Origin: a virus
IMG/VR virus record: IMGVR_UViG_3300032053_011398
Strand: one strand, 5' to 3'
DNA length: 64,000 bases
Shown here: positions 7,224 through 62,352 of the stretch, in pieces
Position numbering within the stretch: the stretch's first letter is position 1
How the letters are laid out: the number at the start of each line of letters is the position of its first letter
Notes under the pieces: model-generated
Told to the model about the DNA's origin: nothing
Databases searched by the model: none
Seen by the model: the letters and a program-made list of their open reading frames with translations, nothing else
Made by a program: the position numbers and the translations under genes

Positions 7224-7295
7224 AAGTTCATCCTTCCAAAAATGTAAACTTTTTAATTCCGTTCTATAACATTGTGGTCAGTGCGGGTTGAAATT

Positions 7296-8057
7296 ATGAG
7301 TGAACCGTTCAAGGCGCAAGTCGAAAAGTTCTTCCTGGAACATGTGCTCCACGAACCCCCACACTGCTATAATCCGTTCGTGACCATGCACTGCCAGCGT
7401 TACGTCCACTCCGTGCTGTTCGCTGAGTTGGAACTGAAAGCGGCCAAGGTGGTCCTGGAAGTGGGCGGCGGATGGGGGGCGTTTACGGAGGGCTTGCGGG
7501 CCTTGTTTCCCAGCCTGGTGATCGAAGGCTCCTCCGCTGATCTCCGCACGGTCTTCACCAACAAGGTGGACTACTATGACTTCATCCTGAACATGGAAGT
7601 CATCGAGCACATAAAAGACCTTGAAATTCCGGGAGATTGGCGTCAGCGGGATGCCTACATCGGTGACGGCCTGAAAAATTTTGTAAACACTTGCTACCAA
7701 TGCCTGAAACCGGACGGCAAGATGTTCCTGACCACGCCAAATCTCAGCTCCGTTAAAAGTCTCTGGCGGGTAATGAATTACAGCGACCCGTTCTCCTATG
7801 AGATGCACTTCCGCGAGTTTTCGATGAACGACCTGTTGAGAATACTGGTCGAAGCCGGGTTCCAGATCGAACGCTATACGACCATGCAGTGCTACGAGCA
7901 AAACCAGGTTCCGCCCGAAGCCAAGGCCCGCATTCTAAGCTTTTTGCGGGAGATGAAACTGTCCACAAACAACCGCGAAGAAGTCCAGTTCGTCATGGCC
8001 GTCAAGTCCGCAGTTAAGATGGCTGCGGTTTCCCAAGGTCCAGTGAACTCCCCGTAA
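7296..8057 (+). CDS. class I SAM methyltransferase
   Basis: VLEVGGGWG, YDFILNMEVIEHI, LKPDGKMFLTTPN. Confidence 0.88.
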   Translation: MSEPFKAQVEKFFLEHVLHEPPHCYNPFVTMHCQRYVHSVLFAELELKAAKVVLEVGGGWGAFTEGLRALFPSLVIEGSSADLRTVFTNKVDYYDFILNMEVIEHIKDLEIPGDWRQRDAYIGDGLKNFVNTCYQCLKPDGKMFLTTPNLSSVKSLWRVMNYSDPFSYEMHFREFSMNDLLRILVEAGFQIERYTTMQCYEQNQVPPEAKARILSFLREMKLSTNNREEVQFVMAVKSAVKMAAVSQGPVNSP

Positions 8058-8073
8058 ATTAGTTCTGGCCACT

Positions 8074-8811
8074 ATGCTGACCATCGGAATTTTGAACTGT
8101 CACCGCCAAGCCAATGTCGTTAAGCTGGTCAAGCGTTACTCTGCCATGCCCCTCGTTTCGCGGATCACCGTCTGGAGCAGTCCGCCCGGCGACTTCCGCA
8201 TCACCGACAATCCAAAGGTTTTGACGGCTACCTGTGCGCCGGATTGGGGCATGTATGCCCGCTTTCAGTCGGTGCTCAACGCGCCCACGGAGTGGATCAT
8301 GACGGTCGATGACGATCTATTCGTCCCGGAGGAGTCGATCAAAACGATGCTCGACGCCCGGATGAAGGACAAGGACAAAATGGTCAGCGGCATGTTCGGC
8401 AGACGGCCTTCCAGAACTCAAGAGTTTGCCGTGTTCCATGATATTGAAGACACGGTGTGCGAAATCGTCGTAGGCCGCGTTATGGTGTTTCACGTCAGCC
8501 TGATTAGCCGCTTCTTCGACGTGGTGCGGAATCCGAAGTGGGAAGAACTCTACGCCCAGGGGCGTCAAGCGGGCTGGAGCAAGACCACCAACATCGAAGA
8601 CATCATCATGAGCTATGTGGCAATGCAGACCGCTCCCGGCAGGCTCAACCAGATTCACAAATTGGGTTGCCAGGAACTAGATGCCCCATTCCCGGTTTGG
8701 ACGATGCGGAATTTCTTTAAGTATCGCCAGGCGGGCATGACCTTCACCCAGCAGTTCTTCAACAACTGGTCGCATAGCGAACACCCCACCGGATACGGGT
8801 TAAGGCGCTGA
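8074..8811 (+). CDS. GT64/exostosin-like GT-A glycosyltransferase
   Basis: ITVW, ARF, IMTVDDD, EDIIMS motifs. Confidence 0.7.
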   Translation: MLTIGILNCHRQANVVKLVKRYSAMPLVSRITVWSSPPGDFRITDNPKVLTATCAPDWGMYARFQSVLNAPTEWIMTVDDDLFVPEESIKTMLDARMKDKDKMVSGMFGRRPSRTQEFAVFHDIEDTVCEIVVGRVMVFHVSLISRFFDVVRNPKWEELYAQGRQAGWSKTTNIEDIIMSYVAMQTAPGRLNQIHKLGCQELDAPFPVWTMRNFFKYRQAGMTFTQQFFNNWSHSEHPTGYGLRR

Positions 8812-8813
8812 AA

Positions 8814-8893
8814 TGGCGCTCCCACCAGGATTCGCACCTGGAGCCTTCTCCTTCGCAGGGAGATGTGCAGATTACTAATTACACCTTGGGAGC
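8814..8893 (-). tRNA. tRNA-Arg (GCG)
   Basis: Cloverleaf, loop CTGCGAA, GCCA. Confidence 0.82.
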
Positions 8894-8900
8894 TTCAAAA

Positions 8901-8977
8901 TGGTGCTCACGGCAAGAATTGCACTTGCAACCTGCGGTTTCGGAGACCGCCGCTCTATCTACTTGAGCTACGCGAGC
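8901..8977 (-). tRNA. tRNA-Arg (CCG)
   Basis: Cloverleaf, loop CTCCGAA, ACCA. Confidence 0.9.
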
Positions 8978-8981
8978 AAAA

Positions 8982-9058
8982 TGGCAGCCCAGACGGGTTC
9001 CGCCCCCGTGATCTCCTGTGTGAAAAACAGGCGTGTTGACTAGCTACACTACTGGGCC
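8982..9058 (-). tRNA. tRNA-Glu (TTC)
   Basis: Cloverleaf, loop TTTTCAC, GCCA. Confidence 0.85.
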
Positions 9059-9063
9059 AAAAT

Positions 9064-9142
9064 TGGTGTTCGTGGACGGACTCGCACCGTCTAATTATCC
9101 AGTATGAGAGACTGGCCGCTCGGCTACTTCGCGCTCACGAAC
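9064..9142 (-). tRNA. tRNA-Glu (CTC)
   Basis: Cloverleaf, loop CTCTCAT, ACCA; overlapped by the 3' end of the HNH ORF. Confidence 0.8.
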
Positions 9143-60408: not shown

Positions 60409-60411
60409 CGG

Positions 60412-60735
60412 TCAGTGCGGGATAAGCCGATCCAGGACTGCTTTCACGACCACAGGGAAGCAGATTATCAAGAACGCCACGACCACAGCCCACTTCGAGC
60501 TGACCATTGTTTTCCAGTCCTGTAGCTCCTGGACGCGGAGGTCGGTCTCGACGGCGCTACGGTTGCCCTCCAGAACGGCCTTGATAAGCCATCCAGTTTG
60601 AGCCTCCATCCGGGAAAGAGTCTCAACAACGTGCTTTTCCTGCGCCGACAGCTTATTCACCAAGTGCGGAGGAATCGCGGATTTGAACTCAGGTTTTTCG
60701 AGTTCCTGGTATCTTGGAATGCGTTGATCGGCCAT
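60412..60735 (-). CDS. coiled-coil + C-terminal TM protein (holin-like architecture)
   Basis: GTATTTA-N7-ATG; C-terminal hydrophobic helix; stop within the dispersed motif. Confidence 0.6.
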   Translation of the reverse strand: MADQRIPRYQELEKPEFKSAIPPHLVNKLSAQEKHVVETLSRMEAQTGWLIKAVLEGNRSAVETDLRVQELQDWKTMVSSKWAVVVAFLIICFPVVVKAVLDRLIPH

Positions 60736-60803
60736 TTTAGGGTAAATACACGGAGCGCGTCACGGGCACCCCAAACTTTTTCAATAAATCTACACTTCGC
60801 CTA

Positions 60804-60832
60804 TTGACACGGAACTCAAAATCGTTTACTTT
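60804..60832 (+). promoter_or_regulatory. sigma70-like promoter
   Basis: TTGACA-N17-TACTTT. Confidence 0.7.
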
Positions 60833-60887
60833 ATCCACGAATGAAAGACAGCCGGGCACGTCGCCCGGCCAAAACGAACGGAACATT

Positions 60888-61307
60888 ATGATCGAAATTG
60901 GAAAGAGCAAAACCATCAAAGTGCGCGAGAAGAAGCACGGCAAACTCGTGCCGAAGCTCGACGAAGAGGGCAACCCCATAACCAAAATCATCAGGGCCGA
61001 AGTCGTGCGCTGCACCCACAACGAGTTGGACGGTCACTTCGGTCGAGACCACGGGCGCACACTCGTCATCCGCCTCAAGGCCGGTGACGTAATCGAGATG
61101 TGGCCGTTTGGCACTCGTCAACGGTATTCAGCCGAATTGAAGCACGTTTTCGCCTGGATGGTGCGCGGAGCCGCCGCCAAGGCTCAGCTTGAAAAGGCCC
61201 GCGAGAAGAAGGCAAAGAAGCAAGCTGCCCGCGCACGTCGTCGTCTGGATTACGCCCCCGCACTGACCACAAGCTTTTTAAACTCTTCCGCCCGTGAAGT
61301 CCAGTGA
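60888..61307 (+). CDS. basic hypothetical protein
   Basis: ORF from MIEIGKSK. Confidence 0.65.
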   Translation: MIEIGKSKTIKVREKKHGKLVPKLDEEGNPITKIIRAEVVRCTHNELDGHFGRDHGRTLVIRLKAGDVIEMWPFGTRQRYSAELKHVFAWMVRGAAAKAQLEKAREKKAKKQAARARRRLDYAPALTTSFLNSSAREVQ

Positions 61308-61331
61308 AAAATCCACGATCCCAACAAAAAC

Positions 61332-62006
61332 ATGAACACCACTGAATTTACCAAAACCGTAGCCTCGGCCAACCATGTCGAACTCACCATGGCCGCGCCC
61401 GGCCAAGACGCCCAGCCGGTTATCGTGAGTATCACCCCGCACGAGGACTGCCTCCACCTGCACTTCAGCGGGCTGGGCGACCGCCACGTATTCTCCGACG
61501 GGCCGGTTACCCCCAATCAAATCAACGTCAGCTATTGCCGTCCAATGAGCAACCTGAAAGGACTACCATCCGCAAACGCTGGAATACCTGTGACTGATCC
61601 AACCCCCACACAACGGGCCGCGATAACGACCGTCCTAGCCGCCCTGGAGCACGCCAACCGTTATCCCAAAGCCAAGCATCCCCACGTCGCCTACGAGGCG
61701 TGCGTGATCCGCTGCGAGGGTCTGCTGGAACGTCTGTTCTTCACCGCGCACTGCCGCGACCGGCAAGAGCAGCTTGAAGTCCTGCTCGCATTTTCAGCCA
61801 TCCCCAACTGCGGGATTTCCAACACACTGACTCCGCCAACCGTAACCATTGCCATCCAACTATTGTCATCCAACCAGCATTCCGCACTGACCATTAACCA
61901 GAACCAAAAACTAGCGCCAGGTCTTCCGCAGCGACAAGCTGATCTCGCAGCCCTGGAGGAACTTGCGCGTGTTGCCCTGCTCGACCCTGTGGCAGCCCGC
62001 AAATAG
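61332..62006 (+). CDS. hypothetical protein
   Basis: ORF track. Confidence 0.55.
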   Translation: MNTTEFTKTVASANHVELTMAAPGQDAQPVIVSITPHEDCLHLHFSGLGDRHVFSDGPVTPNQINVSYCRPMSNLKGLPSANAGIPVTDPTPTQRAAITTVLAALEHANRYPKAKHPHVAYEACVIRCEGLLERLFFTAHCRDRQEQLEVLLAFSAIPNCGISNTLTPPTVTIAIQLLSSNQHSALTINQNQKLAPGLPQRQADLAALEELARVALLDPVAARK

Positions 62007-62102
62007 TAGCAACCTTATTGACTTGGTGGGTGCCGCTCAAAAATTCGCTTCCTCGTAGCGTATTTTGTTTACATTTCGGAGGTCATCTGGCAATGTCGTC
62101 GT

Positions 62103-62333
62103 ATGACTTTGATACTGCGGAAGCTTGGCAAAAAGGGCCTGAGCGTCAATACCGCTCCTTACCGGGTGACGCTCAAGTCCGGCAAAATGCTCTACTACAG
62201 AGAATTATTGGAGATCGCACGGGATGTTTCCGCCCAAAGCGTTGAAACGATCTACGACCGAAAAAAACACCGATGGATTCGCTACGAGTCCATCGGTCAT
62301 CGTAAAAAACGTAAACAAATTAACCCGCACTAA
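62103..62333 (+). CDS. small basic protein
   Basis: Ends NPH* within a motif variant. Confidence 0.55.
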   Translation: MTLILRKLGKKGLSVNTAPYRVTLKSGKMLYYRELLEIARDVSAQSVETIYDRKKHRWIRYESIGHRKKRKQINPH

Positions 62334-62352
62334 CCACTAACTAGAACCAAAA

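Follow-up and report, generated by a model that had tools for sequence, protein, structure and literature searches.

A 64,000-nucleotide (nt) stretch of DNA from the virus record IMGVR_UViG_3300032053_011398 (referred to here as the window) belongs to the genome of a huge phage found in sediment metagenomes. Besides a CRISPR array, it contains dispersed, solitary copies of the 3' end of the array repeat (lone handles), most of which are located just downstream of a short promoter-like box. With about even or slightly better confidence, and from the arrangement of the DNA, we interpret the lone handles as stand-alone, promoter-fused units resembling CRISPR RNA (crRNA), i.e., solitary repeat units, that belong to a miniature type V CRISPR system of the phage itself. 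Such units probably yield stand-alone guide-like RNAs from the phage's own sequence.

The array (positions 56172-56715, plus strand) consists of eight identical 36-nt repeats, GTCGCAGCAGCTAAAAAAGTTTGTGGTCAGTGCGGG, with unique spacers of 36-40 nt. The handle corresponds to 13-14 nt at the 3' end of the repeat, which closes with the 13-mer GTGGTCAGTGCGG. Allowing up to 2 mismatches, GTGGTCAGTGCGG had 24 matches in the window compared to 2.06 expected, and none of 100 shuffles reached 24. Eight of these matches were within the array, and two 2-mismatch matches (10374 and 59839) were at chance level. The 14 solitary copies with ≤1 mismatch were at 1145(-), 7274(+), 10277(-), 14963(-), 30939(+), 40291(+), 46631(-), 49815(+), 51601(+), 53679(-), 60408(+), 61258(-), 61882(-), and 62325(-). 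A 99.2%-identical strain contig (L040-L042), reached rightwards from the window through exact-protein look-ups, added five more, for a total of 19 lone copies (≤1 mismatch) in the 90 kb surveyed, which comprised the window and L040-L042.

A -10-like box (GTTCT, ATTCT, TAAAGT, or TAGACT) was located 4-8 nt upstream of 15 of the 19 lone copies in the same orientation. GTTCT was associated with 12 copies, nine of them at spacings of 5 to 8 nt (N5-8) and the others at N0, N8, and N12. ATTCT was associated with one copy (N5), TAAAGT with two (N5, with TTGCGY 16-17 nt further up), and TAGACT with two (N4). The probability that 7 or more of 13 copies would be preceded by GTTCT at a spacing of N5-8 was ∼4e-14. 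The seven GTTCT positions and spacings listed in the initial annotation were exact (7261, N8; 30929, 40281, 60398, 61904[-], and 62347[-], N5; 51590, N6). Related contigs had similar arrangements. The sequence TTGACT-N17-TAGACT-N5-handle at L037:9877 resembles a good sigma-70-type promoter, and at L038:239, GTTCT-N5-handle is found 13 nt before the first gene of an operon for a 126-amino-acid (aa) protein, a Cas12f-like protein, and its partner.

The boxes upstream of the lone copies are of the same family as boxes that precede ordinary genes (CCGTTCTA and similar). GTTCT was present ≤30 nt upstream of 11 of 66 predicted starts compared to 1.8 expected (P = 1.4e-6), in six cases at exactly 7 nt, in agreement with the earlier observation that it precedes many start codons. 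It was the second most enriched 5-mer in the 30 nt before starts; the most enriched, TAGTT, is part of GTAGTTA. The latter was found 4-8 nt before 10 of the 66 predicted starts compared to 0.9 expected (for example, 10450-10471, 37872-40230, 43060-43088, and 62915-62937) and appears to be a second promoter-like class, distinct from GTTCT. In addition, GTTTACA (or GTAAAC) was found 15-25 nt upstream of several starts, at times 8-11 nt before GTTCT (41330-41361, 58005-58034, 62075-62102, 52580-52604, and 7240-7260), as well as at the homologous methyltransferase promoter of the related phage G001. GTTTACA may be an activator or -35-like box.

Comparison with G001, a 238-kb relative in IMG/VR with a 72%-identical polymerase and synteny across the whole window, separated the box from the handle. 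G001 does not have the window 13-mer (10 matches compared to 8 in a control). At the methyltransferase site (7274), the arrangement is GTTCT-N9-ATG in G001 and GTTCT-N8-handle-N9-ATG in the window. GTTCT is also conserved without the handle in the G001 counterparts of the RusA leader (51601) and of the end of the gene at 60412 (lone copy 60408), consistent with the initial proposal that GTTCT is like a -10 element. Because the homologous G001 sites have the box alone, GTTCT is older and conserved, and the handle was added just downstream of it in the window lineage. G001 carries its own repeat variant as two lone copies, one of which is at the start of the gene preceding the cas12f-like gene, and L044 has four more lone copies of its own variant. 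Because the motif co-varies with the repeat between phages, the lone copies are tied to the CRISPR system and not to the promoter. The possibility that the 13-mer is part of the promoter itself was rejected on account of this co-variation and by the absence of the 13-mer at the GTTCT sites of G001.

Several features indicate how the array is read. The cas genes, leader, and array are on one strand in all related loci. The leaders of L038 and L044 contain GTTCT, followed after 6-10 nt by a degenerate handle. Leader-proximal spacers differ among L031, L033, and L038, which have older spacers in common, as expected from spacer turnover at the leader end, and array decay is found at the end far from the leader. 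The shared strand, the leader elements, the spacer variation at the leader end, and the decay at the far end together suggest plus-strand transcription of the array. Thus, minus-strand array RNA, which had been named at the outset as an observation that would speak against the RNA-gene proposal, seems unlikely from the layout of genes, leader, and decay. Array decay (in the older part of the L038 array and throughout those of L039 and L044) has removed or scrambled the 5' half of the repeat and has made the spacing irregular. The unit that survives is the 3' part, in the form AAAA-NTT-GTGG-(N4-8)-TGCGGG, which is what a type V crRNA would be expected to retain, with the handle 5' of the guide. 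The effector-linked array of L038 (3800-5340) comprises ∼10 clean repeats and, after these, ∼25 degenerate, irregularly spaced units that hold only GAAAAGTTTGTGGTCRGTGCGGG, and its degenerate part includes a 48-nt tandem duplication (5144-5239).

When metagenome contigs were searched for exact copies of the repeat, sediment contigs L030-L038 proved to have arrays in which both repeat and leader were the same as in the window, and in L038 the array directly follows two genes, for proteins of 468 aa and 237 aa. One repeat match each was found in the human-gut metagenome contigs L028, L029, L035, and L036. The exact repeat search of IMG/VR gave one chance match in coding sequence, and among 185,579 species genomes, searched for exact matches to 19 nt of the repeat, there were two single-copy chance matches and no array. 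The array of the L040 strain has the same eight spacers as the window array, with a difference in one neighboring spacer base, and the homologous site in G001 is empty. The window array is the second, orphan array of a genome that has its own effector-linked array. No protospacers were found in INPHARED phages, the window, G001, or the other loci. Two spacers of the L038 type match the window exactly over 16-17 nt (30648-30663 and 56888-56903) and diverge beyond, one of the matches being at the handle-proximal end of the spacer and the other at the distal end; these matches were judged to be probably due to chance in GC-rich DNA.

An inverted repeat, GCGAGCGCCGCC...GGCGGCGCTCGC (56071-56125, plus strand), is located upstream of the array leader. 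Its sequence is kept in four of five related loci, the stem of L045 being different. The stem consensus, GCGAGCGCCGyC...GrCGGCGCTCGC, lies between the partner gene and the leader (L038, 2975-3030; L039, 9085-9140; L044, 3752-3800), and its sequence, not only its pairing, is conserved across diverged phages. The stem could be a terminator, part of a scaffold RNA, or a DNA site for the ParB/KorB-like partner protein described below. An exact 94-bp inverted duplicate (36696-36789 and 55986-56079), also present in L040, repeats at a distance of 19 kb the 3' end of gene 55651-56061 together with the initial bases of the leader stem.

The window array is not Cas-less. A 469-aa Cas12f/TnpB-like gene (P0002), a conserved gene for a partner of ∼235 aa, and an array are found on the same strand in the window's own genome, and this predicted cognate effector gene is ∼42 kb beyond the window end and ∼49 kb downstream of the window array. 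The effector is assigned to the same genome as the window because a single contig of 39,178 nt joins the gene to which the walk out of the window led with P0002 and the partner gene; the series of gene lengths was identical from both sides. The layout of a handle followed by unique sequence, noted in the initial annotation, fits such a type V system, with an effector and a second array in the same genome. The module of cas12f-like gene, ∼235-aa partner gene, stem, leader, and array with a homologous repeat was found in L038, G001, L039, and L044. L045 has the same gene pair with a different stem, and its contig ends ∼200 nt further on, before any array. An 87%-identical effector variant uses the same repeat in the same sediments.

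Profile libraries did not recognize the effector. The 468-aa protein of L038 had no match in Pfam, PHROG, or PADLOC, and no cas genes were found among the ∼30 window proteins scanned against the same three. However, the AlphaFold model of the 468-aa protein (P0001; predicted local distance difference test score [pLDDT], 68) matched structures of Cas12f, TnpB, and Cas12k. The comparison with AsCas12f had a Foldseek E value of 9e-13, and VIA gave a Z score of 16.3 (191 aa; root mean square deviation, 3.7 Å), or 15.7 over the full length. A profile built from 14 members of the family found Cas12f in the PDB at an E value of 8e-7, and language-model (Atlas) features of the effector name TnpB. The effector is thus predicted from these models to have the TnpB/Cas12 fold, of the single-effector type V kind. 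Family members are 459-594 aa in length. The four closest members share the candidate RuvC residues D279, E375, and D431 without exception. Zinc-finger cysteines were not detected in the effector, nor was cas1 or cas2 found near the effector module. A 592-aa protein encoded in L041 was considered as a relative of the effector and was found not to be related.

The 237-aa partner had no Foldseek match and no confident fold. Its weak similarity to helix-turn-helix (HTH) proteins of the ParB/Spo0J/KorB type (Z scores of 5.8, 5.5, and 5.1) is below the reliable Z. This similarity is of interest for another explanation of the lone handles, to which we assign a low probability, in which the 13-mer is a DNA operator or roadblock, that is, a protein-binding site over the transcription start that the array repeats share. 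The asymmetric stoperators of mycobacteriophage L5 and the KorB operators of plasmid RK2 are comparable elements. The 13-mer is asymmetric and dispersed, it is found at a fixed position with respect to the -10-like box, and several copies lie over stop codons or in very short gaps. However, the motif co-varies with the CRISPR repeat between phages and corresponds exactly to the part of it that a type V crRNA would keep. Furthermore, a dimeric HTH protein would be better suited to the palindrome upstream of the arrays than to an asymmetric 13-mer, and the fold match of the partner is too weak to be relied upon.

The position of the lone handles relative to genes is informative for their interpretation as crRNA-like units. 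About one-third of the copies are in sense orientation, either in 5' leaders, with the start codon 3-13 nt past the handle, or before noncoding RNAs (ncRNAs). These include 7274, 51601, L040:19358, L038:239, and G001:72149, along with 10277, before tRNA-Pro, and 1145, after the transfer-messenger RNA (tmRNA). GTTCT-N8-handle (7261-7286, plus strand) is in the 5' leader of the methyltransferase gene, the ATG of which is 9 nt past the handle. GTTCT-N6-handle (51590-51613, plus strand) is in the leader of the RusA-like gene 51664-52197(+), where an 8-codon open reading frame (ORF) starts 5 nt after the handle and the RusA start is ∼50 nt downstream. The lone handle that runs from 1157 to 1145 (1145-1174, minus strand; GTTCT at N12) is 3' of the tmRNA gene (1200-1631, minus strand) and upstream of gene 328-933(-). 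The one-mismatch handle GTGGCCAGTGCGG (10277-10294, minus strand) abuts GTTCT (N0), and tRNA-Pro(cgg) is 4 nt downstream. In G001, the start of a gene for a NUDIX-containing, large multidomain protein of 1538 aa (72149-76765) is inside a lone handle, and the cas12f-like gene is directly after it; a similar protein of 1188 aa is encoded in L042 (10483-14049).

About two-thirds of the copies point antisense into the ends of neighboring genes. GTTCT-N5-handle overlaps the 3' end of gene 30943-31860(-) at 30929-30951(+), and at 40281-40303(+) it is situated between two minus-strand genes and is directed towards the 3' end of 40340-40666(-). A GCGG variant with the same box and spacing (60398-60420, plus strand) covers the stop codons of the convergent genes 59650-60408(+) and 60412-60735(-). 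Two more GTTCT-N5 copies are on the minus strand: an ATGG variant (61882-61908) antisense to the 3' part of 61332-62006(+), and a GTGGTTAG variant (62325-62351) antisense to the 3' end of 62103-62333(+) and just upstream of an ATG of the other strand at 62353. The claim that five of the seven units first reported are antisense to the 3' portions of genes is correct, with the specification that the handle at 40291 is followed by ∼36 nt of intergenic sequence, so that only a longer RNA would be antisense. Four of the five genes, 30943-31860(-), 40340-40666(-), 60412-60735(-), and 61332-62006(+), have protein homologues in a related phage, and 62103-62333(+) has none. Two further antisense copies are found in the 3' ends of plus-strand genes: the lone handle at 14963-14975(-) in the phosphatase gene 14511-14996, with no -10-like box and an upstream GGTTT that resembles the repeat, and the longer half-repeat AAAAAGCTTGTGGTCAGTGCGGG at 61258-61285(-) in gene 60888-61307, without GTTCT. 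The initial reading of these loci as possible RNA genes was partly supported, in its handle layout, its strand, and its GTTCT box, and an antisense-only interpretation would be too narrow in view of the sense copies.

Other copies are in gaps between genes or are part of larger cassettes. TAAAGT-N5-handle in its ATGG variant (46631-46654, minus strand), with TTGCGT 16 nt above TAAAGT, is found in a 38-nt gap between two plus-strand genes, and G001 has no gap at the homologous site. A like cassette (TAAAGT-N5-handle; 49804-49827, plus strand), with TTGCGC 17 nt upstream, is located between two minus-strand genes. TAGACT-N4-handle in its ATGG variant (53679-53701, minus strand) belongs to a cassette of ∼60 nt that is found twice in L040 (800-1345), as direct repeats around a 476-bp segment. 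This segment corresponds to 53199-53674 of the window, which has one full copy of the cassette, and the 476 bp are absent from one run X5 contig, with a 3-nt microhomology at the joint, and from G001. The TAGACT-plus-handle cassette varies in copy number between strains. No indels or empty-site strains at lone handles were seen in four DNA runs.

In the mechanism that we propose, the -10-like box, or promoter, takes the place of the 5' half of the repeat, and transcription would start at the handle or within 1-3 nt of it. The RNA would be born with the handle at its 5' end and would need no 5' processing. The Cas12f-like protein would then bind the handle, and the next 20-36 nt of phage sequence would serve as guide or cargo. 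At sense copies, the bound effector would cover the start codon 3-13 nt past the handle, and the handle that heads the cas12f-like operon would provide autoregulation. Antisense copies would produce effector-bound RNAs complementary to the ends of neighboring genes. The most likely use, which is also the weakest step of this scheme, would be to make the output of a group of phage genes depend on how much effector is present. Such regulation is favored for the tagged genes because the segment that would act as guide includes start codons and because, in two phages, the cas operon has a handle at its head.

Several observations weigh against this interpretation. GTTCT behaves as a conserved promoter-like box, a role predicted by position and conservation only. 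A consensus sigma-70 scan did not call the TAAAGT and TAGACT sites of the window, which were therefore counted only as -10-like hexamers, and two copies have no box and have extra repeat-like bases upstream instead. Across 14 members of the effector family, only D279 is ≥90% conserved, so that the RuvC residues are not clearly conserved. The folding energy of the repeat hairpin or handle was no better than that of shuffles (z of -0.4 to -0.9). A duplex scan of three loci revealed no co-varying anti-repeat, as expected of a trans-activating crRNA (tracrRNA), although an imperfect one may escape so simple a scan. Solved Cas12f enzymes use a long tracrRNA scaffold, and because neither an anti-repeat nor a significant handle fold was found, binding of the 13-14-nt handle by the effector is putative. 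Finally, the longest prefix matches of the guide-like parts to potential trans targets elsewhere in the 118 kb searched were 8-12 nt, which is about the level of chance; beyond these, the guide-like parts matched nothing except the loci to which they belong.

The insertions relative to G001 could also be explained if the lone handles were hard-wired guides, a possibility that we consider unlikely. The promoter-fused handle would make the adjacent phage sequence a guide for the Cas12f-like protein, and close relatives that co-infect and are without the insert would be cut or blocked at the allelic site. The carrier would be immune since the handle occupies the position of the protospacer-adjacent motif (PAM), as it does in the array. 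This would amount to RNA-guided marker exclusion or homing without a transposase or homing endonuclease, according to a TnpB-like logic. Consistent with this possibility, the handles are lineage-specific at syntenic sites, most guide-like parts are in the terminal coding sequence of neighboring genes, the Asp-Glu-Asp candidates are kept in the closest effectors, and the copy number of a box-plus-handle cassette is polymorphic between strains. However, there was no consistent PAM-like sequence 5' of the handles, the four DNA runs gave no empty-site strain, and at the comparable site 7274 the insert is not a clean 13 nt. Sense copies before tRNA and ncRNA genes are also a poor fit.

The duplication and deletion of the cassette between strains, and the absence of the copies from G001, might suggest instead that the lone handles are neutral debris, i.e., repeat fragments that were spread by recombination with arrays and tolerated in noncoding spots. 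This seems very improbable. In 15 of 19 copies, a box of one of four kinds is found at a spacing of 4-8 nt and in matching orientation, which is difficult to account for by chance, and the same layout heads array leaders. Furthermore, the 13-mer was intact in every copy and constant between strains, whereas a neighboring spacer base differed.

The genomic context of the window is consistent with a huge phage. At least 23 tRNA genes, a family-A DNA polymerase, an NAD-dependent ligase, and an intein-bearing DnaB are encoded in the window, and a 242,565-nt contig with the same gene series suggests a phage genome of ∼242 kb. A 640-aa protein (49834-51756, minus strand), the gene for which is bracketed by the lone handles 49815(+) and 51601(+), is kept in G001 (50% identity) and had no family match in Pfam, PHROGs, or PADLOC. 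There are also two coding tandem repeats, one with a 69-nt period in a 796-aa protein (10794-11435) and one with a 42-nt period in the last, open ORF (63331-63980), the length of which is 556, 528, or 570 aa depending on the strain.

If the lone handles are transcribed and loaded into the effector, then a huge phage would be using a miniature Cas12f-like enzyme on ∼20 RNAs from its own genome in addition to the spacers of two arrays. In that case, viruses would be employing CRISPR effectors for built-in regulation or for the exclusion of other strains, and the role of solitary repeats would go beyond that of anti-CRISPR decoys. The analysis also yields a family of Cas12f-like proteins that Pfam, PHROG, and PADLOC do not detect, with a conserved partner, a handle that is apparently 13-24 nt long, and no visible tracrRNA. 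Because a promoter would stand in for the repeat's 5' half, a simple rule suggests itself by which further units of this kind could be sought in the genomes of other phages.

Solitary repeat units downstream of promoters have been described in viruses, where they act as RNA anti-CRISPRs (Racr), three of them against type V-A systems (Camara-Wilpert et al. 2023; PMC10651486). The lone handles are similar in that a single repeat-like sequence outside an array is located downstream of a promoter, which is predicted here from motif position and conservation. By analogy, abundant handle RNAs might be decoys that soak up the Cas12f-like effector of a competing strain, or that of the phage itself, and the high copy number and the presence of the 87%-identical effector variant in the same sediments would be in accord with this. 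However, Racr mimic the repeat of the host, and the cognate cas gene is usually absent from the phage, whereas this phage has its own effector and two arrays, so that decoys would disarm its own system. In addition, rather than mimicking a full repeat, the handle retains only a short piece of it, 13-24 nt from the 3' end. The ∼19 copies in 90 kb are in many cases in or antisense to gene ends, and no host array with this repeat was found in the species genomes searched, in which the only matches were single and attributable to chance. A decoy function therefore seems quite improbable.

Also similar to the proposed units are the crRNA-like regulatory RNAs (crlRNA, CreR, and CreA) produced from solitary repeat units (bioRxiv 10.1101/2024.12.27.630466). 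These too combine a repeat-like handle and a spacer-like part outside arrays, and a crlRNA loads the cognate effector and regulates genes, including cas genes. However, the known crlRNAs belong to bacterial type I systems and work in trans by pairing over 11-16 bp with a promoter that has a PAM, whereas no trans match longer than 12 nt was found here in the 118 kb searched, and any effect would be exerted in cis, either on the tagged RNA itself or on its antisense partner. The fold, the size of the effector (459-594 aa), the adjoining array of 36-nt repeats, and the location of the guide 3' of the repeat-derived part are like those of type V-F Cas12f and TnpB. Unlike type V-F systems, the module described here is phage borne and has a conserved ∼235-aa partner, no Pfam, PADLOC, or PHROG match, no anti-repeat or zinc-finger cysteines that could be seen, and no cas1 or cas2 nearby.

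TldR proteins are prophage-encoded, TnpB-like, nuclease-dead repressors (bioRxiv 10.1101/2023.11.30.569447). As with TldR, a phage-borne protein of the TnpB family is combined here with hard-wired guides for regulation, which in the present case is a proposal, and not for immunity. However, TldR works with a single adjacent guide RNA, which has a long scaffold, and its targets are host promoters, whereas this phage has true arrays along with numerous short lone handles, and the closest members of its effector family seem to have kept the RuvC residues. In the type II-C arrays of Neisseria meningitidis, there is a promoter in each repeat, and the crRNAs are primary transcripts that require no 5' processing. 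In that case, the promoter is inside each repeat of a Cas9 array, whereas at the lone sites of the phage, which are outside the array, the predicted promoter takes over the place of the repeat's 5' half. The distinctive features of the phage system are a Cas12f/TnpB-like family that was missed by profile libraries and its partner, a short, unstructured handle, a promoter in place of half of the repeat, and ∼19 lone copies in 90 kb.

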